From Acidobacteriota bacterium (lineage in GTDB: Bacteria > Acidobacteriota > CAIWXX01): a stretch of DNA of 64,000 nucleotides. Below, one piece after another: positions 2,758 through 21,185 of the stretch. Both the position numbers and the translations under genes were made by a program. The stretch spans positions 256,001 to 320,000 of the forward strand of contig JBFMAF010000010.1 of the NCBI GenBank assembly GCA_040755995.1, read 5' to 3'. The notes beneath the pieces were generated by a model. That model was not told the DNA's origin. It saw only the letters and a list, made by a program, of their open reading frames with translations, and ran no database searches. How positions within the stretch are numbered: the stretch's first letter is position 1; each line of letters begins with the position of its first letter.

Positions 2758-3119
2758 TGCCGACCCCCGAGTTCCTTCTAGCCTTCATTCTGAAGGCGGG
2801 GCTGGAAGGCCGCGCCGCCTCGGACCATCCGATTCGGACAGCGTGAGCGTTCCCGCGGCCATGCGCGATCGCCCTTCCACGCATGTACCCACGCCTACGG
2901 CGACGTCAACGGCGACGAATTCAGACAGGATCCGTCAACCCCGGTAGTAGTCATCCGGTTTGCAGGGCCCTTCCGACATGGAGGTAGTGCACCGGGCTGC
3001 GTCTCCCTGCGTCTCCTACTTGACACGCAGCCGGTACTTCGGGTGGAGTAGCTCCTCGACGGCTTGATTGAGATGCCGTCGCCGGCTATCGCGGACGCTT
3101 CTTGTTTGAGGATCTACAC

Positions 3120-3752
3120 ATGGGCGATGAGTTCGAGGCTCTCCTGACGGTCGTGCAGGGGCGCAGGAGCATCCGCCGCTTTCGGCAGGACCCGGTGCCG
3201 CCCGCGCTGCTGCGCCGAGTTGTCGACGCGGCACGATGGGCACCGAGCGCCGGGAATCGGCAGTCGTATCGATTTCTGGCGGTGGAAAACCGCGAAATGA
3301 TCGCGGCGATGGGTCGAGTGGTGACAGAGGAGATCGACAAAACGCTGCCCCTCCTTCGACCGGCATCCCGCGAAGAGGTCGAGGAGTACCTTCGGAGCTT
3401 CACGCGATTCGTCTGCGCGCCTCTCGTGCTTGTGCCGATCTACCGCACGGGTGTCAGCCTTATCGACTCCGCGGCAGACGGCGAGGCTCCCGACCTGATA
3501 CGACGAGCCGATGCCGATGCGCTATGCTCCGTGTCGGCTGCTACGATGTGTCTGCTGCTCGCGGCCCACGCGCTCGGCCTGGGAACCTGCTGGATGACGG
3601 GCCCTCTCCTGGCGGAGTCACCCCTCTGCGCACTGCTGGATGTGCCGAAGGGATGGTCGATCTCTGCGCTGATCCCCATGGGTTACGCAGCGGAGAGCCC
3701 GCCTGCACCACCGCGCCGCGACGCAGACAAGCTTCTCAGGTATTTCCCCTGA
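3120..3752 (+). CDS. Nitroreductase family flavoprotein
   Basis: RRSIRRF, APSAGNRQ, LAAHALGLGTCW motifs; GAGGA RBS before ATG 3120. Confidence 0.9.
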   Translation: MGDEFEALLTVVQGRRSIRRFRQDPVPPALLRRVVDAARWAPSAGNRQSYRFLAVENREMIAAMGRVVTEEIDKTLPLLRPASREEVEEYLRSFTRFVCAPLVLVPIYRTGVSLIDSAADGEAPDLIRRADADALCSVSAATMCLLLAAHALGLGTCWMTGPLLAESPLCALLDVPKGWSISALIPMGYAAESPPAPPRRDADKLLRYFP

Positions 3753-3768
3753 TTGCCGGGACCCTGCC

Positions 3769-4233
3769 ATGCGCTATCTCATGATCGACCGGATCGAAGA
3801 ACTCAAGAGGCACTCGTACGCCGTGGGCACGAAGTGCATCACCTTGAGCGACGACTGCTTCGAGCATCACTTCCCCGGGCAGCCCATATACCCCGGGGCG
3901 CTGCTCATCGAGACGATGGCACAGCTCGGCGGCGCGCTGTTGGAGATATCGCTTCGCGATGACATGGGTTATTGTCCGCGCTGCGTCCTGAGCACAGTGA
4001 AGGCCAAGTTCCGCGAGTTCGCCCATCCCGGCGATCTCCTGAGCATCAGGGCGGAGGTCGTCTCGATCCATGACGACTCGGCCATGGTTCGCGGCTCCGT
4101 CATGCGGGCCGATGAAACCATCAGCGAGGCCGAGATGATATTCGTGTTTCTGCGCGTCGAGGACTTGCGTCTCGAATCCTCCCGTCGCGAGCTCATCGAG
4201 CTCCTGACGCGAAAGACAAAGTTCGTCGAATGA
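3769..4233 (+). CDS. fabZ: 3-hydroxyacyl-ACP dehydratase, FabZ family
   Basis: YLMIDRI...FEHHFPGQPIYPGALLIETMAQ hot-dog motif with His/Glu dyad. Confidence 0.85.
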   Translation: MRYLMIDRIEELKRHSYAVGTKCITLSDDCFEHHFPGQPIYPGALLIETMAQLGGALLEISLRDDMGYCPRCVLSTVKAKFREFAHPGDLLSIRAEVVSIHDDSAMVRGSVMRADETISEAEMIFVFLRVEDLRLESSRRELIELLTRKTKFVE

Positions 4234-5390
4234 CGGAAGTCGTCATCAGCGGGATCGGCATGCACGGCGCATTCGGCGATTTCGGTGATACGCTCGATGC
4301 GCTCGCACAGGGGCGCACGGCGGTGACCCGGGTCAGCGTAGACGGCGCGCCAGGCTTTCCCGATGTGCTCGGGGCTCCCGCCGGGCCCTACGACCCGGGC
4401 TGCTACGCGCCCGATCGCAAGCTGGTGAAGTACATGAGCCGAACGGCGCAGCTCGCCGTCCTGGCAAGCGGGAGAGCCATCGAGCGCGCTGGGCTCATGG
4501 ATGATCCCCAAAGCCGCGCAGCCATGGCGCTATTCGTGGCGACCGGCTACATAGCGTTCGATCTGTCGAACGTCGCACGCTCGGCCGAGGCGTCGAAGAC
4601 CGCCGACGGCGCGTTCGATCTGGGTCGCATGGGGGAAGAGGGACTGCGCCTCTGCCATCCTCTCATGCCCTTCAAGATGCTGCTCAACATGCCGCTCGGC
4701 CTCGTCTCGATCGCATTCGGCATCCGTGGTGAGAACTTCGTTCTCTACCCGGGCGCCGATCAGGCCGGGATCGCATTCGAAACGGCCTGGCGCGGGATAC
4801 GGAACGGCCGGTTCGTGCGAGCGCTCGTCGGAGGTTGCGGGCAGGGTCTGAGCCCGATCCCCCTGGCGACGCTCATCCGGCAGGACAGAGTCGCCTGCCC
4901 AGACGACACCGGCGGAGGGAGGTTTCCAATCGCCGATCTCGCAGCCTTCGTCATCCTGGAGTCCGCCCAGGCAGCCGAAGATCGTGGCGCGAGAGCCATC
5001 GCGCGGATCGACTCAGTGCGGCTTGCGCGACCACAACGATCCAGTCAGTCGCTGGCCGCCTTCTTCGGCGGCGATCCCGACGGCCATCGACCCGACTCCG
5101 TCGTCGTGACAGGTTGCATCGACTCCGTTGACCTCCAGGTGCTGACTGACGCGGCGGCCTCGGCGTGGCCCGGCACGCCACCTGCTCTGGCCAGTTTCGA
5201 CGACCGCCTCGGTCACTGCGCGGCCGCCTCGTTGCCTCTCGCTCTGGGGCTCGCAGTCGAGAGCATGAGCCGCGGTTCCGTGCCCGTGCAGCAGGACCTG
5301 AGTGCGCCGCGAGACCTCCTGATCCTCTCGGCGGCCGCGGATGAGGCGCTGTTCTCGTGCCGAGTGCGTTCGGTGGAGGCTCCGCAGTGA
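4230..5390 (+). CDS. Beta-ketoacyl synthase-like protein lacking the catalytic Cys (chain-length-factor/FabF-mut type)
   Basis: KS N-terminal fold (VVISGIG, KYMSRTAQLA, FGIRGENF); YPGADQAG where TAC is expected; no HGTGT; ATGA overlap with fabZ. Confidence 0.75.
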   Translation: MTEVVISGIGMHGAFGDFGDTLDALAQGRTAVTRVSVDGAPGFPDVLGAPAGPYDPGCYAPDRKLVKYMSRTAQLAVLASGRAIERAGLMDDPQSRAAMALFVATGYIAFDLSNVARSAEASKTADGAFDLGRMGEEGLRLCHPLMPFKMLLNMPLGLVSIAFGIRGENFVLYPGADQAGIAFETAWRGIRNGRFVRALVGGCGQGLSPIPLATLIRQDRVACPDDTGGGRFPIADLAAFVILESAQAAEDRGARAIARIDSVRLARPQRSSQSLAAFFGGDPDGHRPDSVVVTGCIDSVDLQVLTDAAASAWPGTPPALASFDDRLGHCAAASLPLALGLAVESMSRGSVPVQQDLSAPRDLLILSAAADEALFSCRVRSVEAPQ

Positions 5391-6667
5391 GGCGCGTTGT
5401 GGTGACCGGTCTTGGTGTAGTGTCCCCCATAGGCATCGGCGTCGATGCTTTCTACGACGGTTTGCGACACGCCCGCTCAGGCATCGGCCTGATCCGTTCG
5501 TTCGATGCCAGCACGTTTCCCACTCGCATCGCGGGCGAGGTGACCGGTGACGTGCCGATTCCGGTCTGGGTCGCCGAGCCGCTTGGTTCGGCGATCAATC
5601 GCGACAGAAAGGCCTGCTTCGCTGTGGCTGCGGCTGACCAGGCTCTGACGGAAGCATTCAGCGGCGGTTCAATCGGATCGTCTTACGCGCCCGATCGGAT
5701 AGGGACCTACCTTGGAGCTGGTCTAGAGATCTTCCACCTTGATGACCTTGCGCCCCACGTGAGAGGAGGTGAGCTCGACGGAGCTTCCTTGTTGGCGTCT
5801 TTGCGAGATGCCCCGGCCTTTTCGAGAATGCAGATACCATCGCACCTTGCATCGTCGGCTGTCGCCGCACATGCTCGAGCTGAAGGGCCGCTGGCAGTGA
5901 ACGTCTCGGCGTGTACTGCTGCGGCCCAGGCGATCGGCGAGGCCTTTCTCGCCGTCCAAGACGACGTTCTCGACGCCGCCATTGTGGGAGGCTACGACTC
6001 CATGGTCAACCCGCTCGGCGTGGGAGGGTTCTGCATGCTCGAGGCCCTGTCACGCGCGAACCACCTTGGCGGCGCTGCGTCGAGACCCTTCGATCTGAAT
6101 CGAGACGGCTTCGTGCTCGGCGAAGGGAGCGCGGTGCTGATACTCGAAGAGCTGAATGCCGCGCACAGACGCAACGCGCCGATCTACGCCGAGCTCCTCG
6201 CGTATGCTTCCTCTCTCGACGCGTACCGTGTATCCGATCCGGATCCGTCACTGCAGGGCGCCGTGTCCGCCATGGCGCAGGCGCTGGCACGGGCCCGGCT
6301 CGAACCGTCGGACGTCGACTACATCAATGCGCATGGCACCGGTACTCGCAAGAACGACCCGATGGAGAGCCGGGCGATTCGGCGAGTGTTCGGCAGCGTA
6401 GCCGGCGAGATCCCGGTCAGCTCGACCAAAAGCCAGGTCGGGCATCTCATCGGCGCGGCCGGCGCGGTCGAACTGATCGCCTGCATCTTTGCGCTGACCG
6501 AGGGGATCGTACCGGCCACGATCAACCTGGACACGCCTGACCCGGAATGCGATCTCGACTATGTGCCGAAAAAGCCTCGCGCCAGGACGGTCAGAACGGC
6601 ACTCTCGAATTCTTTCGGCTTCGGAGGCCAGAATGCCTGCATTGCTATCGGGAGGCTCCGTGGTTGA
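5387..6667 (+). CDS. fabF: Beta-ketoacyl-ACP synthase II (FabF family)
   Basis: VVVTGLG, SACTAA (Cys), NAHGTGT, KSQVGHLIGAAG, SNSFGFGG; GTG start overlaps the previous stop. Confidence 0.92.
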   Translation: MRRVVVTGLGVVSPIGIGVDAFYDGLRHARSGIGLIRSFDASTFPTRIAGEVTGDVPIPVWVAEPLGSAINRDRKACFAVAAADQALTEAFSGGSIGSSYAPDRIGTYLGAGLEIFHLDDLAPHVRGGELDGASLLASLRDAPAFSRMQIPSHLASSAVAAHARAEGPLAVNVSACTAAAQAIGEAFLAVQDDVLDAAIVGGYDSMVNPLGVGGFCMLEALSRANHLGGAASRPFDLNRDGFVLGEGSAVLILEELNAAHRRNAPIYAELLAYASSLDAYRVSDPDPSLQGAVSAMAQALARARLEPSDVDYINAHGTGTRKNDPMESRAIRRVFGSVAGEIPVSSTKSQVGHLIGAAGAVELIACIFALTEGIVPATINLDTPDPECDLDYVPKKPRARTVRTALSNSFGFGGQNACIAIGRLRG

Positions 6668-6722
6668 GAGGGCGGGGCATCACGGCGATCGGGAATGGGT
6701 ACGGGTATGAGGTGAGCTGGAG

Positions 6723-7109
6723 ATGAGTACTGTAGAACGTGTCACGAAGTGTCTGGGTGAGGTGCTGGCTCTCGATCCTAAGACCATCACCGCGGATGCC
6801 CGAGTGATCGACGACCTGGGGGCCGATTCGCTGGATCTCGTGGAGTTGATGTTTCTGCTCGAGCGGGAGTTCTCGATCCGGCTGGACAAGCGGGATCTGA
6901 GCCTGAGCGCTCAGCTCGGGCTGACGGAGCAAGAGACGCACCATGAGGAGGTGCTCACGCCGAAGGCCATGAGCCTGCTGCGCGAACGCTACCCCCTCGC
7001 AGCCGATCGGCTGCGAGACGGCATGACCCGCAAGGATCTGGCCGTGCTCCTTACGGTCGGTGAGATCGCCTGGTCGATCGACCGCAAGCTGGCCAACGCG
7101 GGGGTGTAG
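6723..7109 (+). CDS. Acyl carrier protein with a C-terminal insertion (128 aa)
   Basis: DLGADSLDLVEL phosphopantetheine Ser motif; about 45 extra residues before the TVGEI last helix. Confidence 0.88.
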   Translation: MSTVERVTKCLGEVLALDPKTITADARVIDDLGADSLDLVELMFLLEREFSIRLDKRDLSLSAQLGLTEQETHHEEVLTPKAMSLLRERYPLAADRLRDGMTRKDLAVLLTVGEIAWSIDRKLANAGV

Positions 7110-7143
7110 CCCACGGGTTTCCGACAGAGATGCGAGGAACACA

Positions 7144-7878
7144 ATGCTGGAGGGAATGACCGGTCTGGTCACGGGTGGAACGGGCGCGATCGGCGGAGCC
7201 ATTTGCCGGGCGCTGGGCCGATACGGAATGGACGTGGCATTTGCGTATAGAAGACGCGAGGAGGAGGCGCAGAGGCTCGCGGCCGAGATCGAGGCGCTCG
7301 GTCGGAGGAGCCTCTGCGGCGCAGTAGACGGCCGGGACGGCAGGTCGGTCCATGCGTTCGTCGAGCTGGTCGAGGCGCGATTCGACCACATCGACCTTCT
7401 GGTCAACAATCTCGGTATCACGCAGGTCATGCCCTTCGCGTTGATCGAAGAAGAGGACTGGGACGAGATGATGCAGGTCAACCTGAAGAGTCTCTTCCTG
7501 TTCACCAAGGCCGTGCTGCGCGGCATGGTGCGCCGGCGGCAGGGGGTGATTCTGAACATGGGATCGATCGCCGGCCACAGGATGCTCGATGTGCCGGTAC
7601 ACTACGCCACATCGAAGGCCGCTGTCACGGGATTCACGACTTCGCTGGCGAAGGAGGTTTGCCGCTACGGCATACGCGTGAACGAGATCTGTCCCGGGTT
7701 GGTCGACGCCGGGATAGGCACGAACGTCTCCGAGCGGCAGCTCGCGCTGTACAACCAGTTCTGTTCGCTCGCCAGACCCGGCAAACCGGCGGAAGTCGCC
7801 GAGCTGGTGGCGTTTCTGGCGTCCGATCGCGCTTCCTACATCAACGCTCAGCAGATGGTCGTAGACGGAGGCTTGTGA
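7144..7878 (+). CDS. fabG: 3-oxoacyl-ACP reductase (SDR, FabG family)
   Basis: TGGTGAIG, NNLG, YATSK catalytic motif, VDGG end; GAGGA RBS. Confidence 0.88.
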   Translation: MLEGMTGLVTGGTGAIGGAICRALGRYGMDVAFAYRRREEEAQRLAAEIEALGRRSLCGAVDGRDGRSVHAFVELVEARFDHIDLLVNNLGITQVMPFALIEEEDWDEMMQVNLKSLFLFTKAVLRGMVRRRQGVILNMGSIAGHRMLDVPVHYATSKAAVTGFTTSLAKEVCRYGIRVNEICPGLVDAGIGTNVSERQLALYNQFCSLARPGKPAEVAELVAFLASDRASYINAQQMVVDGGL

Positions 7879-9335
7879 TGAGCTGTGTCGCAGGCGGGGA
7901 GCCGGTCACGTTCCTTTCCGCTTCCCGCGGAATGTGCCGTGCGTGCCGGCGCATGGTAAGGGTCCGCTATGTGGCCAGAGGACACCGTGTGTTTCTGGAG
8001 CGCACATGCCCAGAGCACGGAGTAGGCAGGGCGCTCGTTGCCGAAAGCGTCGGGTGGTACCTGGCCGCGATGCAGCGAGGCTCGTCGAGCCGGCCTCCGC
8101 CGCGCAGCTTCCCCAAGCGCGCCGAATGCCCCCATGACTGCGGGCCGTGCTCCTTTCACGCCCAGGCCTGCCACCTTCCCGTCGTCTCGATAACCAATGC
8201 ATGCGATCTTCGCTGCCCGATCTGCTTCACCTACAATCGGGCCGATCGCACATACTTCATGTCTCGCGACGAGTTCGTCCGCCAGCTGGACTTCGTGATC
8301 GAAGCATCAGGAGGAGTCGACCTCATCAACATCACGGGCGGTGAACCAACGTCACACCCACAACTGTTCGATCTGATCGAGGCTGCCAGGCGGACCGGGA
8401 TCGGGCGCGTCACCCTGAACACGAATGGACTCAGGCTCGCGCGCGAGCTGGACATGGTGGAGCGCCTCGCGGAGCTTGGCGCATACGTAGTGCTGTCGCT
8501 CGACACGCTCGATCCGCGGATCAGCTTTCGAATGCACGGGCGCGACATCGTGGCGGAGAAGCTGCGCGCACTCGAGCTGCTTGACCGGTTCGGCGTGCAG
8601 ACAACGCTGCTCATGGTGCTCGCAGGCGGCGTGAACGAGGGCGAGCTTGGGCGGCTCATCGACATCCTGCTCGAGCGCAGCTTCATCCGGAGTCTTACGA
8701 TTCAGACAATGACGTACACGGGACGGGGTGGCGGCACGTTCCGGCCGAGGGAACACATTCCCGTCGACGGCGTTACTCGCCGCGTCGAGGAAGCCAGCGG
8801 GGGCCGGATTCGACAGAGGGACTTCCTGCCTTTACCCTCGGCGCATCCTCTCTGTTACAGCGTGGCCTATTTCGTCGCGGACGGCCGGGGCGGTGCCCGG
8901 TCGCTTCTCGGCGTGCTCGATCGGAGCCTGCTGGAGCGCCACCTGACCCGCGGATACCTGCTCGATGCGGGAGCCGAGCTCGAGGAGGCGCTGAGGCTGG
9001 CGATCGACCGGGTGTGGAGCGAAGGTGACGATCCGGGCTTGCTCAAGACAATGAAGGATGTGCTCGGCCGCGTGTTTCCTCCAGGAGAGACTCTCGATCG
9101 GCACGAGCGGCAGCGCCGGGCCGAACAGGCGGTCAAGACCGTGTATGTTCACTCCCACATGGACGAGGACACATACGAGATCGGCAGGGCCATGCGGTGC
9201 CCGGATCAGGTGCCCGTCGACGGGGAGAAGCTCATCGGAGCATGCAACTACAACCTGTTCTACAGGCAGAATGACGAACGTTTCTGGGTGGAGGCAGGCG
9301 TCGTGGGAAAGGCGGAGGTCCAAGGGCCGCCGTGA
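7878..9335 (+). CDS. Radical SAM enzyme, tetraether lipid synthase (Tes/GDGT-MAS)-like, paralogue 1
   Basis: CRAC...CPEHG, CPHDCGPCSFH, CDLRCPIC, GGEP, HPLC, HMDEDTYEIGRAMRC, GACNYN; TGATG coupling to fabG. Confidence 0.85.
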   Translation: MSCVAGGEPVTFLSASRGMCRACRRMVRVRYVARGHRVFLERTCPEHGVGRALVAESVGWYLAAMQRGSSSRPPPRSFPKRAECPHDCGPCSFHAQACHLPVVSITNACDLRCPICFTYNRADRTYFMSRDEFVRQLDFVIEASGGVDLINITGGEPTSHPQLFDLIEAARRTGIGRVTLNTNGLRLARELDMVERLAELGAYVVLSLDTLDPRISFRMHGRDIVAEKLRALELLDRFGVQTTLLMVLAGGVNEGELGRLIDILLERSFIRSLTIQTMTYTGRGGGTFRPREHIPVDGVTRRVEEASGGRIRQRDFLPLPSAHPLCYSVAYFVADGRGGARSLLGVLDRSLLERHLTRGYLLDAGAELEEALRLAIDRVWSEGDDPGLLKTMKDVLGRVFPPGETLDRHERQRRAEQAVKTVYVHSHMDEDTYEIGRAMRCPDQVPVDGEKLIGACNYNLFYRQNDERFWVEAGVVGKAEVQGPP

Positions 9336-10756
9336 GCACTCGGGAAATGATGCAGACCGATCTACACGCCGACTCCGCCTCATCCTGCCTCGATGCCACG
9401 CTCGCCCTCTGCAACGCTTGCGGCCGCCTCTGCGACGCACAGATCCGCCTCGATCAGGAACGGGTCGTGCTGGTGAAGTGGTGTCCGGAACACGGCATCA
9501 CCAGGTCTCTGGTCAGCTCCGACAAGAGCTGGTATCTTCGGTCCCTCTCGTACGTGAAGCCCGGGACGCGCCCGCTGGCACGCGCATTCGATGGGTGCAC
9601 TGCGTGCCCGGGCTCCTGCGGTCTCTGTCCCGATCACCAGCAACACACCTGCGTCCCCATTGTCGAGATCACGGGCTCCTGCAATCTGCACTGCCCGATC
9701 TGCCTCGTTTCGGGGAGGGTCGGCAAGGAGCTCACGGTGGAAGAGGTCCGATCAGTCCTCGATCATCTCATCAGATACGAGGGGAAGATCAACATGCTGA
9801 CGCTCAGCGGTGGCGAGCCGACGGTCCACCCTGAGCTCACTGGCATCCTCGATCTTTGCCGGCGGCCGGAGATCGGGCTGGTCTCGGTTTCGACCAACGG
9901 CATCGCGCTCGACCGCGACCCTGACCTTATCCGGAAGATCCGGGACCGCGACGCGGTCATCTCGCTTCAATTTGACGGGTTCGCGGAGGAAGTGTACGGA
10001 TCGTTGCGCGGGAGAGGCGATCTTGCAGCGCTGAAACAACGGGTCGTCGAGAGAATCTTGGACGCCGGTGCACGGTTGTCCCTCACGGTGACCTTGGGGC
10101 GAGGTGTCAACGAAGCGGAGCTGCCGCGTATCCTGGACCTGTTCTTTGCCACCGACCTTGTACTGAGCCTCATGCTGCAGCCTCTCAGCTACGGAGCCTC
10201 CTGCGACGATCCGCTGAACGTCCTGACGATTCCCGATGTAGTCCGCCTCGTGGCCCAGGCATCCAGGGGCAGGCTCACGCGCGATGACTTCACGCCTCTG
10301 CCCTGCTCCCACCCGAGTTGTTTCGCGCTGACCTATCTGTTGAAGCTGGACGGCGGCGCGCTTGTGTCGCTGCCATCCCTCATCGACGTCGAGTCCTACA
10401 TCGATATCATAAAGAACCAGGCGCTCTTCGGCACGGACATGCAGACGCTTGAACGCATCAAGGACGCCCTCTACTCCCTGTGGTCGTCGGACGGCATGCT
10501 GCCGCATCGCGACGCGGTCCTCGGCCGAGTCAAGCGGTTGCTCAATGACATCTCGGCGTTGGGCCGGGCTGGATCTCACCGCGATCTGATCGACCTGGGC
10601 GTGTCGAACGTGAAGTCGATCTTCATCCACCATTTCATGGACCGCGCAACTTTCGATCTGAGCCGCGCGATCAAGTGCTGCAACCACTATGCGATGCCGG
10701 ACGGGAGGCTGTTGCCGGCCTGCGTACGCAACAACCTGACGGCAATTGGATCATGA
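9332..10756 (+). CDS. Radical SAM enzyme, Tes/GDGT-MAS-like, paralogue 2
   Basis: CNAC...CPEHG, CPGSCGLCPDH, CNLHCPIC, SGGEPT, SLQFDG, CSHPSC, HFMDRATFDLSRAIKCCNHY, PDGRLLPAC. Confidence 0.88.
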   Translation: MSTREMMQTDLHADSASSCLDATLALCNACGRLCDAQIRLDQERVVLVKWCPEHGITRSLVSSDKSWYLRSLSYVKPGTRPLARAFDGCTACPGSCGLCPDHQQHTCVPIVEITGSCNLHCPICLVSGRVGKELTVEEVRSVLDHLIRYEGKINMLTLSGGEPTVHPELTGILDLCRRPEIGLVSVSTNGIALDRDPDLIRKIRDRDAVISLQFDGFAEEVYGSLRGRGDLAALKQRVVERILDAGARLSLTVTLGRGVNEAELPRILDLFFATDLVLSLMLQPLSYGASCDDPLNVLTIPDVVRLVAQASRGRLTRDDFTPLPCSHPSCFALTYLLKLDGGALVSLPSLIDVESYIDIIKNQALFGTDMQTLERIKDALYSLWSSDGMLPHRDAVLGRVKRLLNDISALGRAGSHRDLIDLGVSNVKSIFIHHFMDRATFDLSRAIKCCNHYAMPDGRLLPACVRNNLTAIGS

Positions 10757-11799
10757 TCCGGTCGATCTGCAACTGCCTGGCGCACTTGGTTGCCGGACGG
10801 CCCGACGGCTGGTATCCGCTTCTCGGCGTCTACTACCTCACCTACGCCTGCGACATGAGGTGCACTTACTGCAGTGACGGCAGCGGCATCCCGTACTACC
10901 GCCTGCCGGATGAGCCCGTCTCGGGTGCAGGAGCAACCGAGATCATGCGGACCATGCGACGGTGGACGGACTACCTGGTGATCACAGGAGGCGAGCCGCT
11001 ACGGCACCCCGATTTCGTCGACGTGCTATCCGGCCTTCCCGCCCTTCGCTTCGACGGCGTCGTTCTAACGACCAACGGTTGCGACGTGGCCCCGTATCTT
11101 CAACTGATCAACGCCTCCGTGCGATACCTGGTCTTCTCCCTGGACACTCTGAACGAGGATCGCGCCGGGCACATCTACGGGCGGCGCCACGTGCTTGACC
11201 GAATACTCAGCAACATCGAATCTGCCGCAAGCGTCCCGGAGCGGCGGTACGAGATCATCATCTCCGCGGTCGCAACACCGGACAATCTCGAGGACCTGCC
11301 GGAGCTCTACCAGTACTGCCGCCGGCGAGGCTTCCGCTTCGCCCTGTGCCCGCAGCTGCTGGGGGTCAAGCCGCATCCGGCTCTGCGTGATAACCCCGGA
11401 TACCGGAGAGTCTTCGATATGCTCATCTCCGAGAAGCGGCGCGGCGGCCGAATCCATGGTAGTGTTCCATACCTGGAGCATATGCGCGACCTGCAACAAT
11501 TCTCATGCCGCCCAAGCACCGTTCTCGCCGTGTCGCCCGCCGGTAACGTTTTCTATCCGTGCCTGGAGATCGGCCACGCGGCCGGCTCCCTCGCCGATGA
11601 GCCCGACATCCACACCATTCGCCGGCAGGCACGAGAGAGGTTCGGCGAGGAACCACGGTGCGACAATCGCTGCCATTCGGCGTGCGCTCTCGGTTTCTCC
11701 TTGCTCCTGAACCGCCCTTGGTCGATTGTCCACGAGGCCGTTCTCGCCGCGAAGTCCACGTTGCGGCGCACGCTGAGGGGATACTCCAGTGTCTGCTAA
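10753..11799 (+). CDS. Radical SAM protein with C-terminal SPASM/twitch-like Cys cluster
   Basis: CDMRCTYC, TGGEP, TTNG; C-terminal CRP...YPC...CDNRCHSAC; ATGA coupling. Confidence 0.85.
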   Translation: MIRSICNCLAHLVAGRPDGWYPLLGVYYLTYACDMRCTYCSDGSGIPYYRLPDEPVSGAGATEIMRTMRRWTDYLVITGGEPLRHPDFVDVLSGLPALRFDGVVLTTNGCDVAPYLQLINASVRYLVFSLDTLNEDRAGHIYGRRHVLDRILSNIESAASVPERRYEIIISAVATPDNLEDLPELYQYCRRRGFRFALCPQLLGVKPHPALRDNPGYRRVFDMLISEKRRGGRIHGSVPYLEHMRDLQQFSCRPSTVLAVSPAGNVFYPCLEIGHAAGSLADEPDIHTIRRQARERFGEEPRCDNRCHSACALGFSLLLNRPWSIVHEAVLAAKSTLRRTLRGYSSVC

Positions 11800-13084
11800 G
11801 AAACGCTCCGTTGCCGCACTTGTCTGCACGGCCTGGCTTGGCGCCGGCGCGTCCATCGCAACTTCTTCCGCTCTGGCATGGATCGTGGGCGTCGAGGAGA
11901 TCTCCCCATCCGAGCTCGACCGGCTTCTCTCGTCGTCAAACCCGCCCGTCGTCGTCGACGTCACGACACGGGAAGAGTTCCTCCGTGAACATCTGCGCGG
12001 ATCCGTCAACGCCCCGCTGGGCGAGCTCGACTCCCAGCGAGGCGCCTTCGAGGCGTATCAGAACACGACCGTGGTGACTGTGTGCCAGGGAGGCGTGCGT
12101 TCGGCTCTGGCAGCGTCGAAGCTGGAAGGGCAGGGTCTGAAGCACGTGCTCAGCCTTTCGGGAGGCAAGCTCGCCTGGTCCAGTCAGGGGCTGCCACTCG
12201 AGTCCGGCGGGCCGCCCCCCTTCGCGGCAAGTGCACGCAGAGGCCCCTCAATCACGCTGTCGTTGGTGGAACAGACCGTGTCGGTGATTTCGGCGTTCGC
12301 CGTCAAGCCGGCCTACATGCTGCTCAGTCTGATCGCCGTGCTGCTAATGCACCGGCGCAGATCGCGAGACATGCTCTTGATTCGTGCGGGCCTTGCCGTG
12401 TTCTTCGCCGGCGAGCTCTTCTGCGCAATCAACTATCTGTGCACCGGCGGCGCCAACTTCTGGCTCGACATGCTCCACGGCATCGGCATGGTGGCGATGG
12501 GAGTGCTGGTTCCATGGGGAGCGTTCATATTGGTCGACGAGCGCGTGATCGGGCTGACGCAGCCCGACGCCGGCTGCTCGTTGAGGCGCTTCTGCGCGCG
12601 TTGCTGGAAGCAGGTTGAGGCTCCGTGTGCCGCGCACCGCATCTTCAAGCTCGTTGCGCCGGCCATGGCAGTCGTCTCGCTGATGCCGTGGACTGCGCCG
12701 ATCCGCGAGCTCAGCGAGGTCGGGACCGTCTTCGGGACGCCGGTGGCCTACTCGTACTCGCTGCCGCTGCAGCTCGCCGACTTCCGATTCTATCCGGCTG
12801 CAGGCGCCCTTTGCCTGGCAGTCGCTTCAGCAATGCTTTGCGGCGGCAGACGATCCATGAGATCTGCTCAGCCCTTCTTCTTCGCAGGCTTCGGGTTCAT
12901 GGCGTTTTCTCTGTTCCGTTTCCTACTGCTCAGCGCGTACCGCGAGACCCCCGTCTGGTCCGACTTCTGGGAGGAGCTCACGGAGCTCCTTTTCACGGTG
13001 ATCTCCATCGCCTTGCTCTGGATCTATCGGGAGCAGCTCGGCCTAGGCAGGGCAGCCCGTGTGACACCGTCCGCCGAGGAGTGA
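11789..13084 (+). CDS. Rhodanese-domain integral membrane protein
   Basis: Signal-like N-terminus, VVDV..EEF..HLRGS, active loop CQGGVRS, LSGG..AW; then about 8 hydrophobic segments with a CxxxxxCxxC...C loop. Confidence 0.8.
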   Translation: MSAKKRSVAALVCTAWLGAGASIATSSALAWIVGVEEISPSELDRLLSSSNPPVVVDVTTREEFLREHLRGSVNAPLGELDSQRGAFEAYQNTTVVTVCQGGVRSALAASKLEGQGLKHVLSLSGGKLAWSSQGLPLESGGPPPFAASARRGPSITLSLVEQTVSVISAFAVKPAYMLLSLIAVLLMHRRRSRDMLLIRAGLAVFFAGELFCAINYLCTGGANFWLDMLHGIGMVAMGVLVPWGAFILVDERVIGLTQPDAGCSLRRFCARCWKQVEAPCAAHRIFKLVAPAMAVVSLMPWTAPIRELSEVGTVFGTPVAYSYSLPLQLADFRFYPAAGALCLAVASAMLCGGRRSMRSAQPFFFAGFGFMAFSLFRFLLLSAYRETPVWSDFWEELTELLFTVISIALLWIYREQLGLGRAARVTPSAEE

Positions 13085-14118
13085 CGGGAGTGGGTGCCCC
13101 GGATCTGATCAGGCTTCTGACGTTCTTTCGTCGGCTGAATCTGCCTCGCTGGCCGCGCCGGGCCGCTGCACGCATTGTCGAAGAGCACGATCTCTCATCG
13201 CCGTCGGGCGCGCTCTACGACCACTACCTGCCGCGCAGCACGGTGCGATCCCGGATCGTGGCCCTTCACGGCGTCACGCGCAAGGGCAAGGACGACCCGA
13301 GGCTCGTCCGCTTCAGCCGCTCCCTCGCCTCCGCCGGGGTCGAGTGCTTTGTGCCGACACTCAGGGGCCTTGCCGAATTCGACTGGCGCGGCTCCGATAT
13401 CGACGACCTCGTGGCGCTTGTCCTTGGTGTCGCGGGCGGGGCGCGGTCGCTCGGGGTCGTCGGCTTCAGTTTCGGAGGCAGTTACGCATTGGTCGCCGCT
13501 GCTCGTTCGGAGATCAGCCAGACTCTCCGGTTCGTCCTCGCGGTAGGCGCATACCATTCGCTCGTCGATCTTTACGAACGCGTCGCGGCGGTTGGTGCAG
13601 ATGGAAGATTCGCCGGCAGTCGCGGAGACATGGATGACTGGATATACCTGCATCTCGTCGCGGCTCGGCGCCTGGCGCCCGAGCTGCGGCTCGACCCAGC
13701 AACACTCGTCGAGATGGATTCGCTGCTTGACCGCTACTGCCACTCCAGCTCGCTACCCGAGAAGACCTCCTTCTACGAGCGTCATCTCGAAGGCCGGAAT
13801 CTCTTGCAGCAGGATTGGGCGATGGCCGATCGCGCGGTGCTCGAACGCCTTTCGCCGGCGACCCGGCTGCGCAGCGTGGCATGTCCGGTTCGCCTGCTGC
13901 ACGATCCTGAGGACGCGATCGTTCCGGCCGATCACGCCCACAAGATCGCGGCCGAGCTCGGCCGGTGGGACCGCTCATGCAGGCTTGTCGTCACACCGTT
14001 GCTCCACCACGTCTCCCTGTCGAGCGCCCTGATGACGGCCGATTGGGTACGTATCGCGGCACTGTTTCTGCCGGTGATGGCAATGCGGCCCGGGAAGGAC
14101 GAAAGTGGGGCGGACTGA
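13081..14118 (+). CDS. Alpha/beta hydrolase (putative thioesterase/esterase)
   Basis: LHG, GFSFGG nucleophile, EDAIVP Asp, LLHH His; GTGA coupling. Confidence 0.8.
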   Translation: MTGVGAPDLIRLLTFFRRLNLPRWPRRAAARIVEEHDLSSPSGALYDHYLPRSTVRSRIVALHGVTRKGKDDPRLVRFSRSLASAGVECFVPTLRGLAEFDWRGSDIDDLVALVLGVAGGARSLGVVGFSFGGSYALVAAARSEISQTLRFVLAVGAYHSLVDLYERVAAVGADGRFAGSRGDMDDWIYLHLVAARRLAPELRLDPATLVEMDSLLDRYCHSSSLPEKTSFYERHLEGRNLLQQDWAMADRAVLERLSPATRLRSVACPVRLLHDPEDAIVPADHAHKIAAELGRWDRSCRLVVTPLLHHVSLSSALMTADWVRIAALFLPVMAMRPGKDESGAD

Positions 14119-15154
14119 GCTCGGCGAGCGCCTCAAGCGCGTGCGCTATGCCGCGAGCTTCCTGCGGAGGGGCATGGTACACGTCAATCTACAGGTGCTC
14201 TACCAGTGCAACTTCCGTTGCCGGATCTGCGACTTCTGGAAGCGGCGCTATCAGGAGATGCCGCAACTCGGCGCCGATCAGGCGCGCCTCATCGCGGACA
14301 AGCTCGACGAGTTGGGGCCGCAGATCGTGTCGATCGGCGGGGGCGAGCCGCTCATGCACCCGGAGATAGTCACGATTGCGAGGATACTGTCGCGGCGCCA
14401 TCTGCCTGTCATGATTACGAACGGATGGTTCGTCACGCCGGAGCTCGCCCGGAGCCTCTTCGAGGCAGGGATGTACGAGGTAAGCGTGTCGGTAGACTAC
14501 GCTGAGGCCGGCAGACATGACGCTCAGCGTGGGTGCAAGGGCGCATACGACGGCGCTATCGCCGCACTGGAGATTCTGCAAGCCAACCGGACACGGCCGT
14601 ACCAGAGGGTACACATGATCTCGGTGGCCATGGCAGACAACCTCGATGAAATCGAGCCCCTGATCCGGCTTTGCGGGAAGATGGGCATCACCTACCTCGT
14701 GACCCTGTACTCTGACGGCCGAGGGCAGAGGGACCTTTCCTGTGTTGCAGGAGACGCGAGTGCGCGCTTGCTGGCCCTCAAGGAACGCTACCCTGGATTC
14801 GTATCGCTGCGAGGCTATCTGGGGCGATTCAATGGTGCCGCTCCGGCCGCCCGACACGACCGTTGCTTCGCAGGCCTCAATCTGATGAACATAGACTGTC
14901 GGGGAAGCGTCTCCCTCTGCATCGACCGCGCGGATGAAGTCGTCGGCAACCTGCTCGAGGAGACCACGGAGGCGATCCGCCGCAAGCTGCTCGCGAGATA
15001 TCGCGACAACCAATGCCGCTCATGCTGGACGTCTTGCCGTGGTTCGATCGAGACCCTGATGTACGGCGGAGACCGGTTGGCGAACCTGCGTGACCTCTAC
15101 GGAATGACGAAGCCGGTCCCACTAGCCCCTGAGGCCGTGAGGCGACGGGGTTGA
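14105..15154 (+). CDS. Radical SAM protein with C-terminal SPASM/twitch-like domain
   Basis: CNFRCRIC, GGGEP, ITNG; CFAG...IDCRGSVSLC...GNL...CRSCWTSC. Confidence 0.85.
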   Translation: MGRTELGERLKRVRYAASFLRRGMVHVNLQVLYQCNFRCRICDFWKRRYQEMPQLGADQARLIADKLDELGPQIVSIGGGEPLMHPEIVTIARILSRRHLPVMITNGWFVTPELARSLFEAGMYEVSVSVDYAEAGRHDAQRGCKGAYDGAIAALEILQANRTRPYQRVHMISVAMADNLDEIEPLIRLCGKMGITYLVTLYSDGRGQRDLSCVAGDASARLLALKERYPGFVSLRGYLGRFNGAAPAARHDRCFAGLNLMNIDCRGSVSLCIDRADEVVGNLLEETTEAIRRKLLARYRDNQCRSCWTSCRGSIETLMYGGDRLANLRDLYGMTKPVPLAPEAVRRRG

Positions 15155-15421: not shown

Positions 15422-17215
15422 ATGAGAAGTCGACACATCGCCCGCCTGACCACACAAGTCTTTGCAATCCTGTTCATAGCAGCCCCGGTTCACGCGGCGA
15501 CGCCCTTCGCACGCGCCGCCGGTGAGCTCGATTTCGTCCGGCGCTTGCGGGACGCGACGCCCCCGGCCGCGCGCCCTGCCCTGACGAATCTGGTCGAGAT
15601 GGTGCGGATGGATGACGGTGTGCGGTTGCACACGTCGGTCTATCTCGCCTCGCAGTCGGGGCGGTACCCAGCTATCCTGGTCCGGACGCCGTACAACGAC
15701 GCCACCGACGGCCTTGATGACTACGGCTACTCCGGCATCGCCGACTACTACTGCCCGCGCGGGTACGCCGTGGTGATCCAGACAATCCGCGGCAAGTACG
15801 CATCGGAGGGGACGTACCGTCTCATGTCGCGCGGCGAGATCGACGACGGCTACGCCGCAATTGAGTGGATCTCACGACAGGCCTGGTGCGACGGCAACGT
15901 GGCTGTCATGGGCGTGTCGCACGACGGGTTCGATGCACTTGCCGCCGGCATCCGCAACCCCAGCGGTCTCAAGCTGGTCATATCCGGCGGCGGCCCCGCG
16001 GACTTGCGGACCGACGCATTCATGCAGAAGGGGACCCTCGGCACGAGCCTGCTCGACTACATCGACTTCATGTTCACCGAGACCGGCCAGCCGTATGACG
16101 ATCTCTTCTTCCGCCTCATGGAGACGCTGGGGCTGCCGGAGCCGCGGCTTCTCGCCTACGACACGCTTGTGAGCGGCAAGGAGCTGCCGGCGTGGGACGA
16201 GCACATCAAGGCCATGAGCCGTGTCAACAGTGACTACTGGCAGAAGCGCCGGATTCGCGACCGGCTGCACGAGTGCAAGCTGCCGATAGTCCAGTTCGCG
16301 GGACTCTACAGCGACGGCGATATGCCCGATGTCCTGCGCAATTTCGAGTACCTCGAGGAGAGAGGCATCCAGGGCCGCTTGATCCTCGGCTGGTGGGCGC
16401 ACGGGTCCTCCGGCCCCTACGGCGATGTCGAGGGGTACACTCCACCCGATGTGCTCAAGCGATACAATGCTCTGCTCGACTACTACCTCAAAGGACTCAG
16501 CAGCCCGATTCTCAACGAGAAGCGGATCCAGGTCTTTGCGGCGGGCGAGGGCAAGTTCGTGCCATCCAACACGTGGCCTCAGCTTCCTGGATACACATCG
16601 CGCGAGTTCTACTTCGCGCGTGGCTCGACGCAGGCCGGCAAGCTGCTGAGCGCGCCACGATCGGAAAGCAAACCCAATGTGTCGTACGCTTATGACCCTA
16701 AGGTGCTTCCGACGATTCTCTACGATCCGGGGCCGATCCGAAACCACACCGACCAGCTGGCGTTTCTGAGTGATCCCATGCCCGCAGACACGCCGGTATG
16801 CGGCAAGGCGAGCCTGACGCTGTACGTGTCGAGCACGGCCAGGGACACCGACTTCTATGCGGCCGCATTCGTGCGCCAGACTGACGGGACGGATCGTGAG
16901 CTCGGGCCGGGACCGGGCCTTCTCCAGGCCCGCCAGCGGGACGGCGATTACGCGCGGCCGAAGATGCTCGTGCCGGGCCAGGTGTACGCCGTGACGATCG
17001 AGCCGCCGTTCATCTCTGGCATCGTCAAGAAAGGCGAACGCCTCGGGGTCGTGGTCTTCAGCAACGCCTTTCCGGTGGTCATCCGAAACGCCAACAGCGG
17101 AAAGCCGATAGGCTCCGACAAGGCCTTCATCACCGCGACCCAGAAATTCTACCTCGGGAAGCTCTACCCGTCGAAGCTGACCCTGAGCTGCCGGTCCCCA
17201 TCGACCGGCGGGTAG
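15422..17215 (+). CDS. Secreted CocE/NonD family hydrolase (peptidase S15-like)
   Basis: MDDGVRL, RTPY, RGKYASEG, WCDGNV, GVSHDG nucleophile, GWWAHG, C-terminal SSTARDTDF domain; signal peptide; AGGAG RBS. Confidence 0.88.
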   Translation: MRSRHIARLTTQVFAILFIAAPVHAATPFARAAGELDFVRRLRDATPPAARPALTNLVEMVRMDDGVRLHTSVYLASQSGRYPAILVRTPYNDATDGLDDYGYSGIADYYCPRGYAVVIQTIRGKYASEGTYRLMSRGEIDDGYAAIEWISRQAWCDGNVAVMGVSHDGFDALAAGIRNPSGLKLVISGGGPADLRTDAFMQKGTLGTSLLDYIDFMFTETGQPYDDLFFRLMETLGLPEPRLLAYDTLVSGKELPAWDEHIKAMSRVNSDYWQKRRIRDRLHECKLPIVQFAGLYSDGDMPDVLRNFEYLEERGIQGRLILGWWAHGSSGPYGDVEGYTPPDVLKRYNALLDYYLKGLSSPILNEKRIQVFAAGEGKFVPSNTWPQLPGYTSREFYFARGSTQAGKLLSAPRSESKPNVSYAYDPKVLPTILYDPGPIRNHTDQLAFLSDPMPADTPVCGKASLTLYVSSTARDTDFYAAAFVRQTDGTDRELGPGPGLLQARQRDGDYARPKMLVPGQVYAVTIEPPFISGIVKKGERLGVVVFSNAFPVVIRNANSGKPIGSDKAFITATQKFYLGKLYPSKLTLSCRSPSTGG

Positions 17216-17390
17216 GCAGCTGCCGAGGCACATTGTGCTCAGCGGCTTGGTGACTCCCGCGCGATCGGCCGGAGGCGCACGCGCGGGGGAGGCCGCCGGC
17301 CACTGAGCCCGAATGTCTCCGAGCCGCCTTCACAACGACGCCCCGAATGCAGCGATGATGCCGGTGAATTATGGAGACGGCCCTTGAATG

Positions 17391-17422
17391 ATTCTTGACT
17401 AAATAGTATACTTAATTACCAT
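17391..17422 (+). promoter_or_regulatory. Sigma70-like promoter overlapped by an AT-rich Rrf2/IscR-type operator
   Basis: TTGACT (17395-17400), 16 bp, TACCAT (17417-17422); ATTCTTGACTAAATAGTATACTTAAT is strikingly AT-rich and resembles IscR-type sites. Confidence 0.55.
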
Positions 17423-17439
17423 GACTAGTGAGGTGGGTG

Positions 17440-17910
17440 ATGAGATTCACGGCACAGGAAGAGTATGGGCTGAGATGCGCCCTGCAAATGGCCAAGAAAG
17501 ACGGGGAGAAGCCGCTCACGATCGCGGACCTGGCGAAGCTGGAGGGGCTGACGAGTGCCTACGTCGCCAAGCTGATGCGTGTGATGAGGAAGGGCGAGGT
17601 GGTGGTGAGCGTGCGCGGACAGTCTGGTGGCTACCGTCTGGCGCGCCCGCCGGCACTCATGAGTGTTGCCGATGTGTTGATGGTGCTCGACCGGAGGCTC
17701 TATCAACCATCCTACTGCCGGCAGTTCGCGGGATCGTCCCCGTCCTGCGTCCACATCCGCGACTGCACGATACGGGCCCTCTGGCGGAAGCTCCAGACCA
17801 CCCTCTGGCACACGCTCGAACAGATCACTCTCGCGGATCTCGTGCACGGAGGCGAGAGCGAGATGCTCGTAAGCCTGAGGACGGCGCTCCCCGTGGCGCG
17901 CTGCTCATAG
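17440..17910 (+). CDS. Rrf2 family transcriptional regulator (IscR-like, three Cys)
   Basis: EEYGLRC, SVRGQSGGYRLARP, C-x8-C-x5-C then LWRKL...LEQITLADL. Confidence 0.9.
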   Translation: MRFTAQEEYGLRCALQMAKKDGEKPLTIADLAKLEGLTSAYVAKLMRVMRKGEVVVSVRGQSGGYRLARPPALMSVADVLMVLDRRLYQPSYCRQFAGSSPSCVHIRDCTIRALWRKLQTTLWHTLEQITLADLVHGGESEMLVSLRTALPVARCS

Positions 17911-18052
17911 ACGGCTTCGAGCGCGAGGCTGCGGTGCACGTGCGCGTTGCGCGGGCGGGCCCAGCCGATGCTCTCACACCGACCACACCGGCCGCTCCGT
18001 CAGCACCACAACCCACCCAGAACGGACTGCGGACCGAGTGAGGAGATAAGCC

Positions 18053-19144: not shown

Positions 19145-19146
19145 CC

Positions 19147-19479: not shown

Positions 19480-19647
19480 CACCCGCGGGCCTGCATAGCG
19501 CGCGCGTTGCCGAGCCGGACGCAGGGGGCCCGGGCCTGTCAGGAGCGCGGCGATAACGGCACGCATGCAAACCGCGCCGGGGCCTTGAGGCTTAATGGAC
19601 GGCCCGGCGGCGCCGATCTGGTGCGCTGGTCGCCATCGAATCGGCCC

Positions 19648-19677: not shown

Positions 19678-19683
19678 CGAATC

Positions 19684-21171: not shown

Positions 21172-21185
21172 CAGGAGGATTTTTC

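Follow-up and report, generated by a model that had tools for sequence, protein, structure and literature searches.

The only solved relative of the proteins considered here is the tetraether synthase Tes (GDGT-MAS; MJ0619 of M. jannaschii, structure entries 7TOL and 7TOM, family model NF045702). According to the available parts of its description (PMC9433317, PMC8941075), this archaeal enzyme couples the tails of membrane lipids (Csp3-Csp3), joining both radicals at one [Fe4S4]C cluster held by three cysteines, given there without numbers, and Met439. The variants Y459F, Y459L and M439A remain active, the enzyme forms a C-S intermediate with this cluster and, under limiting SAM, gives off a lipid that contains sulfur, and the protein was purified from monomer fractions. 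Those same parts state that bacterial homologues exist and that their reactions are unknown. Bacterial Tes homologues have been proposed as brGDGT synthases, and surveys count them by loose similarity (E < 1e-50) as possible brGDGT producers.

Here we examine two genes, RS1 and RS2, in a window of 64,000 nucleotides of DNA from an Acidobacteriota bacterium. Like Tes, their products have the four-domain fold, the four metal-site motif sets and three invariant cysteines at the C-terminal cluster. Unlike Tes, they have a His for Met439 and a shorter link before the HPxC cysteine, are two paralogues predicted to dimerise, and fall below the family cut-off in a separate clade within an ACP/KS cluster. 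Our best reading, advanced tentatively and with slightly less than even confidence, is a heterodimer in which both radical SAM subunits are active and which forms C-C bonds on the cluster's ACP-bound chain. We found no paper on the pair or the cluster in the literature searched, in which subscription journals were thinly covered.

Other systems offer partial parallels. The lipoyl synthase LipS1/LipS2 (PMC9585515, PMC13692748) also consists of two radical SAM proteins, often adjacent and each with an auxiliary cluster, which act sequentially on a carrier-bound acyl chain; a His is a proposed auxiliary ligand in LipS1. However, these proteins are annotated as biotin synthases, are not Tes-fold and use octanoyl-lysine as substrate; the available parts of both reports state no LipS1-LipS2 complex, and the likeness is one of functional analogy only. 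The anammox ladderane cluster (bioRxiv 10.64898/2026.05.19.726425, PMC13459092) has its own type II FAS/PKS genes, a KS-null partner included (a KS/CLF-like amxFabF heterodimer, a dedicated ACP and FabZ), radical SAM tailoring enzymes and an unusual lipid product. A review (PMC13459092) reports one B12-dependent radical SAM enzyme and one phytoene-dehydrogenase-like enzyme for it, neither of which was found in the RS1/RS2 operon, and the resemblance is one of gene content. The membrane-spanning lipid synthase Mss (PMC13459092) is likewise bacterial and of the radical SAM type, and it couples fatty acyl chains; compared by description, it is a single enzyme acting on host fatty acids.

Results

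RS1 (7878..9335, plus strand, 485 aa) was assigned as a Tes-fold radical SAM protein from its ORF, motifs and fold, and RS2 (9332..10756, plus strand, 474 aa) from its ORF, motifs and sequence match. RS1 starts with an ATG at 7878 that overlaps the FabG stop, and RS2 with a GTG at 9332 that overlaps the RS1 stop. RS1 runs from a rubredoxin-like domain through an N-terminal cluster motif and the radical SAM core to a C-terminal cluster site. As the initial annotation had described, the tandem genes are real and both carry all four motif sets: CxxC..CPEH, CPxxCGxCxxH, CxxxCxxC and HPxC / (R/K)C / (G/P)AC. The Cys, Cys, Cys, His ligands of the rubredoxin-like domain and of the N-terminal cluster are as in Tes, as is the radical SAM CxxxCxxC; the rubredoxin His is replaced by Cys in about half of RS1 relatives. 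The two proteins are 31% identical over 456 columns, and both exceed the gathering scores of PF23545 and PF04055, which places them in the Tes-like superfamily.

Alignment to the M. jannaschii structure bears out the resemblance. By sequence search, 7TOL is the best PDB match of RS1 (E 7e-40) and of RS2 (E 3e-59), and the RS1 model fits 7TOM (Z 44.2, rmsd 2.9, 432 residues aligned, TM 0.81), the next-best fold reaching Z 20.1; the likeness to Tes is therefore not due to chance. The four-domain fold was assigned to RS1 by model fold search and to RS2 by sequence alone. A promoter and terminator scan gave nothing exceeding shuffles, a search for RNA holders of the two genes came up empty, and the Atlas returned only unnamed radical SAM clusters for RS1.

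The pair sits in a conserved, widespread fatty-acid/polyketide gene cluster, here an operon of 12 genes, all on the plus strand. Upstream are a nitroreductase-family flavoprotein (3102..3752, start codon uncertain), recognised as a conserved member by domain search and cluster comparison; a FabZ-like dehydratase (3769..4233, profile match); a KS-null, chain-length-factor-like ketosynthase homologue without Cys at the catalytic position (4230..5390); a FabF-like ketosynthase with Cys-His-His motifs (5387..6667, profile and motifs); a dedicated acyl carrier protein of 128 aa (6723..7109, domain search and alignment), much longer than typical ACPs, with a C-terminal extension common to the cluster family; and a FabG-like SDR ketoreductase (7144..7878, profile match). 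BLASTP gave no usable alignment of KS-null with KS, so the missing Cys was read off an alignment to solved FabF. Downstream are RS3 (10753..11799, profile match), a radical SAM protein that is not Tes-like and has a weak C-terminal DUF3463 match; a membrane protein (11789..13084, domain search) with an N-terminal hydrophobic segment, a rhodanese domain that keeps its active-site Cys and a multi-pass membrane domain to which the Atlas gave no family name; an alpha/beta hydrolase (13081..14118, domain search), a candidate release enzyme; and RS4 (14105..15154, profile match), a radical SAM/SPASM protein 25% identical to RS3. With a Cys-His-His KS, KS-null, dedicated ACP, ketoreductase and dehydratase, this is a type II PKS/FAS with a KS/CLF pair. 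RS1/RS2 had been thought to mirror the KS/KS-null pair. That pair is real, but the analogy is weak on conservation, because RS1 is slightly more conserved than RS2 (mean identity 52% versus 48% over 37 paired loci, with RS1 ahead in 90% of pairwise comparisons).

The two proteins had also been taken for Tes/GDGT-MAS paralogues, of which the Tes-type fold stands but the family assignment does not. RS1 scores 178 and RS2 225 bits against NF045702, with a cut-off of 450. They belong to the same broad family as the TrsS radical SAM (seleno)protein (NF045646), scoring 206 and 236 bits, but the cut-off there is 490, TrsS forms a separate clade, and neither RS1 nor RS2 has an in-frame TGA. A TGA flagged as a possible selenocysteine codon in an RS2 relative (G1087) proved to be the RS1 stop adjoining the RS2 start. 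In a 56-row IQ-TREE quick search (SH-aLRT only, midpoint root; FastTree was also used), RS1, RS2 and third paralogues form one clade with support of 100, apart from the Tes group (99) and TrsS (99). Some clusters contain such a third Tes-like paralogue, and a true Tes of 563 bits is encoded on another contig of the same genome. We read RS1 and RS2 as products of an ancient duplication within a Tes-related radical SAM clade that is confined to this type of gene cluster; taken whole, with the heterodimer included, that reading strikes us as plausible though a little short of an even bet.

The C-terminal cluster motifs, located by motif and alignment, extend from H425 to C456 in RS1 (9150..9245, plus strand; HSHMD, RCPDQV, GAC) and from H433 to C464 in RS2 (10628..10723, plus strand; HHFMD, KCCNHY, PAC). 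Both proteins have the three cluster cysteines, probable ligands to judge by their invariance; the sites comprise C326/C441/C456 and H425 in RS1 and C330/C449/C464 and H433 in RS2. Using a 20-residue offset for Tes numbering, derived by hand from the C9/C12 given for Tes, His425 and His433 align with Met439, and Val445 of RS1 and Tyr453 of RS2 with Tyr459. The Met439 column holds Met in 33 of 35 Tes and His in 42 of 43 RS1 (the other is truncated) and 60 of 60 RS2; the His noted earlier at the Met position is thus general to both paralogues, neither of which has Met as fourth ligand.

The motif quoted in the initial annotation for the archaeal enzyme, MHFMD...RCCIHY, equals the M. jannaschii chain in 7TOL, but RCCIHY is not a family consensus. 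Of 35 Tes representatives that score above the cut-off, 5 have the second Cys of RCC; among 120 close relatives of the same genome's own Tes, none does. The first Cys is invariant (35/35 Tes) and kept in RS1. We rejected the idea that the second Cys is a cluster ligand without which RS1 would be disabled, as it is missing from most true Tes. The asymmetry between the paralogues is clade-wide, but loss of the second Cys and of His-Tyr does not mark RS1 as degenerate, because the first Cys is kept and Tyr459 and Met439 are dispensable in Tes.

Around the SAM pocket, RS2 keeps the equivalents of Arg210, Gln197-Asp199 and Tyr459. RS1-type proteins have His, Leu, Gln or Tyr in the Arg210 column, only 58% of main-clade RS1-type rows have Asp in the Asp199 column, and RS1 differs from both Tes and RS2 at several pocket columns. 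In SuiB and MoaA, as aligned to RS1, the Arg210 column holds no Arg. RS1 retains CxxxCxxC, GGEP and the three C-terminal cysteines, and its active-site lining motifs (CxxxCxxC, GGEP, TQTMTxTG-type, HxHMDED) are invariant. Judged by these motifs, each subunit probably retains four metal sites as well as a SAM site that is still usable.

Structure prediction supports the heterodimer that had been suggested for the pair. The RS1:RS2 ipSAE values are 0.86/0.85/0.86, against 0.00 for the best of 3 controls, none of them a homodimer; the runs have at least 96% of contacts in common, with a partner pLDDT of at least 83. Of 157 solved complexes, 116 reach the pass mark, as do 2 of 215 mismatched pairs, although proteins closely related to a true partner reach it too. 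Recall of a solved dimer by the predictor is unlikely, since Tes was purified as a monomer and 7TOL and 7TOM contain one chain each. Most of the predicted interface would be supplied by RS1 residues 9-73, the rubredoxin-like domain and following helix (7902..8096, plus strand; 26 of 39 RS1 interface residues), and RS2 residues 16-78 (9377..9565, plus strand; 26 of 35). At the interface position RS1 G436/RS2 S444, Gly, Ser or Ala occurs in 41 of 43 RS1 and 60 of 60 RS2; the equivalent is Glu in 30 of 31 close Tes and Gly, Ser or Ala in 6 of 35 diverse Tes. A tandem second rubredoxin-like domain occurs in 20 RS2-type and 0 of 54 RS1-type proteins, and it corresponds to the RS1 region that contributes the bulk of the predicted interface. 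Interface conservation gave no support (RS1 0.51 versus 0.64 elsewhere; RS2 0.55 versus 0.59 elsewhere).

The two genes co-occur in other genomes, in line with the initial annotation. RS2 was found in 23 of 23 RS1 genomes checked, 19 times in the locus and 4 times elsewhere in the genome, and of 36 metagenome loci with a main-clade RS2, 26 also have RS1; 9 of the 10 without it have less than 1.8 kb upstream. RS2 is present with no RS1 match in G147 (91% complete), and RS2-type genes at L058, L083, L084, L085 and L097 have no RS1 within the available DNA. Three loci encoding the tandem rubredoxin domain (L086, L092, L095) have an RS1-type gene nearby; several other tandem-domain RS2-type relatives have none. 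No well-assembled genome with RS1 and without RS2 was seen, the sole RS1-only case being G111 (83% complete). The reading of Planctomycetota genomes with a single match as RS1-only was rejected; the 23 of 47 such genomes that were inspected belong to another subfamily. In several clusters RS1 and RS2 are split by other genes.

Discussion

We propose a model where RS1 and RS2 assemble as the predicted pseudo-two-fold heterodimer, with contacts made by the rubredoxin-like domains, the N-terminal cluster loops and the helix preceding the C-terminal cluster Cys. The KS/KS-null pair, FabG and FabZ, going by their family roles, would assemble an acyl chain attached to the dedicated ACP. By analogy with Tes, each subunit may then abstract an H atom at its own chain position and park the resulting carbon radical on one sulfur of its [Fe4S4]C cluster, which 3Cys+His would hold. 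Using a second SAM, it would complete a C-C bond within its own active site, either closing a ring or making a cross-link, with electron supply possibly shared across the dimer interface. The product would be a specialised lipid or acyl metabolite, not a GDGT. The initial suggestion that each protein handles one chain end is a poor fit, because Tes couples both radicals at a single cluster. It is tempting to speculate, with the chances somewhat against us, that RS1:RS2 uses eight metal centres for two regiospecific functionalisations of unactivated C-H bonds (C-C or sulfur insertion) on an ACP-bound chain, giving an undescribed bacterial lipid class across several phyla.

The chemistry may instead resemble that of LipS1/LipS2, possibly still in a heterodimer. 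Each His-ligated C-terminal cluster would give one sulfur, leaving a thiol, thioether or S-ring on the ACP-bound chain, and its sulfur would be replenished by a rhodanese or a cysteine desulfurase-rhodanese. We consider this doubtful. The C-S intermediate and sulfur-bearing lipid of Tes are in keeping with such a role, as is a His fourth ligand in both paralogues like that proposed for LipS1. Of 23 aligned rhodanese domains, 22 retain the Cys, and a cysteine desulfurase-rhodanese fusion lies near RS2 in 7 loci showing no membrane-rhodanese gene; in two of those genomes the query used found the membrane protein nowhere. Yet in 13 of the 34 loci that encode the membrane domain, the ORF concerned lacks a rhodanese domain, and the rhodanese may face outward, because a hydrophobic N-terminal segment with basic residues before it precedes the domain. 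The desulfurase could merely help to build the Fe-S clusters of four radical SAM enzymes, and the sole characterised fold relative makes C-C bonds. Catalysis by RS2 with RS1 as an accessory, for structure, substrate binding or electron transfer via its rubredoxin and N-terminal cluster, largely agrees with one suggestion of the initial annotation but seems unlikely to us. It would account for the SAM-pocket residues kept in RS2 and changed in RS1, for clusters that show no RS1 but an RS2 fused to a second rubredoxin-like domain, and for the restriction of RS1-only genomes to G111, but the stronger conservation of RS1, its invariant active-site motifs and the active radical SAM enzymes that align without Arg at the Arg210 column argue against it.

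The predicted interface is pseudo-symmetric, with 31 alignment columns common to both sides, and could be a family homodimer surface; RS1 and RS2 would then work apart from each other, one step after the other, each as a monomer or homodimer. The separation of the genes in several clusters and the third paralogue in some would agree with this. We find it distinctly improbable, as the second rubredoxin domain is confined to RS2-types and co-occurrence is near complete; homodimers are compatible with both observations. That the pair are redundant Tes enzymes joining the tails of finished membrane lipids into branched GDGTs is suggested by the 7TOL match, the brGDGT proposal for bacterial homologues and the JGI label 'tetraether lipid synthase' on two RS2 orthologues. 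The sub-cut-off scores, the separate clade, the true Tes in the same genome and the constant linkage to a dedicated ACP/KS cluster make this highly improbable. As for the preferred C-C-forming heterodimer, observations that count against it are the RS2-without-RS1 cases, the lower conservation at the interface, the RS1 SAM-pocket changes and the sulfur-related neighbours. The rhodanese and cysteine desulfurase neighbours point toward sulfur chemistry.

This work defines one clade of bacterial Tes homologues and gives it a partner, a predicted complex and a candidate carrier for its substrate. If our reading is true, Tes-type radical parking extends from free membrane lipids to ACP-bound biosynthesis, and the locus points to a new lipid or metabolite. 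Because the survey threshold is loose and RS2 orthologues carry a tetraether label, counts of possible brGDGT producers may include this non-Tes clade, which is relevant to biomarker work. The similarity network of bacterial homologues in Suppl. Fig. 5 of PMC9433317 may include this clade.

Results

RS1 and RS2, the tandem Tes-fold radical SAM paralogues of the window, belong with their cluster to a real, conserved and uncharacterised system, as seen in motifs, fold, clade, gene context and co-occurrence. We regard it as a new, probably heterodimeric variant of the Tes-type (tetraether synthase, GDGT-MAS) radical SAM enzymes, set within a dedicated type II PKS/FAS gene cluster. The initial annotation had proposed asymmetric Tes paralogues, possibly a heterodimer or two-step coupling enzyme; the partnership holds, but the residue-level case for a crippled subunit fails. 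No published account of the pair or cluster was found in the literature searched, supplements aside, and bacterial Tes homologues are described as untested in the sections cited (PMC9433317, PMC13459092, PMC8941075, PMC11868695, PMC13188914, bioRxiv 10.64898/2026.05.19.726425).

RS1 (7878-9335, + strand, 485 aa) and RS2 (9332-10756, + strand, 474 aa) overlap in their codons, are 31% identical, and both carry PF23545 and PF04055 together with the metal-site motifs exactly as first quoted. M. jannaschii GDGT-MAS (MJ0619; 7TOL) is the top solved-structure match for each. The fold search covered the RS1 AlphaFold model (pLDDT 83.5; 85.4 for RS2), and comparison with the MJ0619 structure, as originally suggested, gave the Tes type as best fold (7TOM; TM 0.81; Z 44.2, rmsd 2.9, 432 residues), the second-ranked fold reaching only Z 20.1. 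An extra invariant Cys directly after the N-terminal cluster His (RS1 C98, 8169-8171; RS2 C107, 9650-9652) is absent in Tes and lies one alignment column apart in the two proteins.

Membership of the Tes clade, assumed at the outset, is not borne out. Scores fall below cut-off for Tes (NF045702; RS1 178 bits, RS2 225 bits, cut-off 450) and TrsS (NF045646; 206 and 236 bits, cut-off 490), and a 56-row tree (quick search, SH-aLRT support only, midpoint root) places RS1-type (support 100), RS2-type (93) and third paralogues together in a single clade (100), with Tes (99) and TrsS (99) grouping apart. The rows came from a representative search with 150 listed and 77 scanned, every second over-cut-off Tes and TrsS being used. 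The window's genome itself encodes a canonical, over-cut-off Tes of 563 bits on another contig (L024:1384-3021, G000:C31), whose named close relatives are mostly Terriglobia/Bryobacteraceae and point to a probable acidobacterial host, and a second Tes-clade protein (L025, G000:C33:9792-11207) scoring 341 bits on NF045702. In the alignment the L025 protein shows no N-terminal cluster motif; hits to FabG and ketosynthase lie within about 8 kb of its gene. Third Tes-like paralogues occur in some clusters (L061, L088, L052, L107, L113, L124, L132), one type with Met at the fourth-ligand column (MQFMD) and another reading HSYMD. Another Tes-like subfamily (L180-L202, Planctomycetota sample) is single-copy, with cluster genes absent within 1.5 kb; single Tes-like hits appeared in 47 of 401 Planctomycetota genomes, 23 of which were inspected.

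The pair lies in a 12-gene run on the + strand (3102 to 15154) encoding a nitroreductase-family protein, FabZ, KS-null (a chain-length-factor-like ketosynthase homologue without the catalytic Cys), KS, a long ACP, FabG, RS1, RS2, the radical SAM protein RS3, a rhodanese-membrane protein, a hydrolase and a further radical SAM protein, RS4. The ACP (6723-7109) exceeds standard length by ~50 residues, and this extra part, conserved in all aligned relatives, is a possible docking surface for tailoring enzymes. The membrane protein (11789-13084) has a multi-pass domain with conserved Glu/His and a four-Cys loop, and matches no named family. Two BNR/sortilin-like repeat proteins lie upstream (3-2757). 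The genes downstream (15422-23935), for a CocE/NonD hydrolase, an ApbC/Mrp Fe-S carrier, a MocR-type regulator with pdxS and pdxT, and a glycerophosphodiester phosphodiesterase, do not recur among related loci.

A GTDB scan led by RS1 returned 23 loci, with records that include Myxococcota, Planctomycetota, Deltaproteobacteria, Riflebacteria, Cyanobacteria and Pseudomonadota. RS2 lies within 19 of them and elsewhere in the same genome for the other 4, so that the expected co-occurrence of both genes was found in 23/23 RS1-bearing genomes. Many contigs end early, and with that limit the 23 loci contain KS in 16, KS-null in 15, ACP in 15, FabZ in 16, nitroreductase in 14, rhodanese-membrane protein in 14, and RS3 and RS4 in 12 each. 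In a metagenome scan led by RS2 (80 kept of 118 confirmed loci), RS1 accompanies 26 of 36 main-clade RS2 loci, 9 of the 36 being short of upstream room; at L058, neither the 7.4 kb upstream of RS2 nor the 3.3 kb downstream of it contains RS1. Occurrence is patchy: 5/401 genomes match in the host's phylum, the window's genome included, 7/401 Planctomycetota genomes have an RS2-type gene, and the pair is present in 2/401 and 1/44 genomes of the phyla of G411 and G406. Pairing breaks down in G147 (91% complete), where RS2 occurs alone, and in G111 (83% complete), which has an RS1-type gene but no RS2. On a low-quality contig (L018:748-2162) RS1 is frame-split at N runs and was excluded from counts. 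Several genes absent from the window's operon occur in relatives: a hexapeptide-repeat acyltransferase (24 loci, as at L015:18185-18796), a small unnamed membrane protein (12 loci, as at L107:12558-13022), and, commonly, a second SDR and a second FabZ-like gene. One variant cluster (L092:2364-20753) combines three Tes-like genes with two KS/KS-null pairs, and also encodes a class III aminotransferase and a fatty acid hydroxylase.

In the sections cited, the C-terminal cluster of Tes is ligated by three Cys and a labile Met439, and variants M439A, Y459F and Y459L keep robust activity (PMC9433317; PMC13459092). Across 35 over-cut-off Tes representatives, the RCC motif has its first Cys in 35 and its second in 5, two reading Cys-Pro as RS1 does; Tyr459 is present in 28 and Met439 in 33. 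The second Cys occurs in 0/120 close relatives of the window genome's own Tes. RS1 retains C326, C441, C456 and His425 and has lost no likely ligand, because the first RCC Cys is invariant and the second mostly absent in Tes, an assignment made from invariance rather than coordinates. The substitutions that had suggested a crippled RS1 thus lose their force, the second Cys being rare in Tes and the three variants active.

The asymmetry itself, correctly noted at first, is systematic across the clade. Counts were made on 157 near-full-length ORFs, grouped by tree and HMM score, after removal of rows <380 aa, duplicate or X-rich. H[AST]HMD is found in 41 of 43 main-clade RS1 and Cys-Pro in about 93%; the 60 RS2 all combine Cys-Cys and Tyr with a His at the Met position. 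In the SAM pocket of RS1, Arg210 becomes His, the Gln of QFDG becomes Ser, and Arg275 is mostly Gln, with Asp in 58% at the Asp199 column. These differences are no proof of inactivity, since SuiB and MoaA likewise align without Arg at the Arg210 column. Mean conservation is slightly higher in RS1 than in RS2 (52% vs 48%, 37 paired loci).

Discussion

Co-folding points to RS1 and RS2 forming a heterodimer, which we consider fairly likely and which agrees with the partnership first proposed. With RS1 8-474 and RS2 16-474 and a 20-row alignment each, predicted ipSAE was 0.86, 0.85 and 0.86, against 0.00 for the best control; the runs had at least 96% of contacts in common and partner pLDDT of at least 83. 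The pass mark is reached by 116/157 solved and 2/215 mismatched pairs, rates that are only rough here. Paralogues with a shared surface can pass such a test without being specific partners, and the interface columns of RS1 and RS2 are not especially conserved, which weakens the case for a specific heterodimer. The predicted interface is pseudo-two-fold, pairing the first strands of both rubredoxin domains and including the N-terminal cluster loops and the helix preceding C441/C449. The heterodimer agrees with two sequence facts. The contact column RS1 G436/RS2 S444 holds a small residue in 41/43 RS1 and 60/60 RS2, and Glu in 30/31 close Tes and 21/21 complete rows of RS2c, an RS2-type subclade. 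A second tandem rubredoxin-like domain is found in 20 RS2-type proteins (L058 and 19/24 RS2c) vs 0/54 RS1-type, and spans the region supplying 26 of 39 RS1 interface residues. Its carriers (L058:7465-9123; L092:9752-11500, both with two PF23545 hits in Pfam; 18 other RS2c loci) represent about two independent lineages, being L058 plus the RS2c subclade. L083, L084, L085 and L097 have the tandem domain and no RS1 in 7.9-9.9 kb downstream; in L086, L092 and L095 an RS1-type gene lies close to the gene with the tandem domain. The second domain is not clearly closer to either paralogue, that of L058 scoring 51.6 bits to RS1 vs 47.9 bits to RS2.

We infer an ACP-bound substrate and activity in both subunits. 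That each subunit handles one chain end, as initially suggested, is unlikely because Tes, in the sections cited, generates both radicals at one SAM site and joins them at one cluster (PMC13459092); more economically, each subunit of RS1:RS2 would make one bond. As to reaction type, C-C bond formation is our first choice by analogy, since Tes, the only characterised fold relative, does so. Sulfur insertion follows close behind: Tes passes through a C-S intermediate, and LipS1/LipS2, as described in the portion cited (PMC9585515), are likewise a radical SAM pair, whose members work one after the other on an acyl chain attached to a carrier. His is proposed as an auxiliary ligand in LipS1 in the part cited (PMC13692748), the rhodanese Cys is retained in 22/23 aligned domains, and cysteine desulfurase-rhodanese fusions stand near RS2 in 7 loci showing no membrane-rhodanese gene (L079:11419-13564; also L021, L023, L059, L065, L067, L088). 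Against insertion, the rhodanese domain is missing from the membrane-domain ORF in 13/34 loci. The fusions near RS2 are usually accompanied by a PEMT/ICMT-like membrane methyltransferase.
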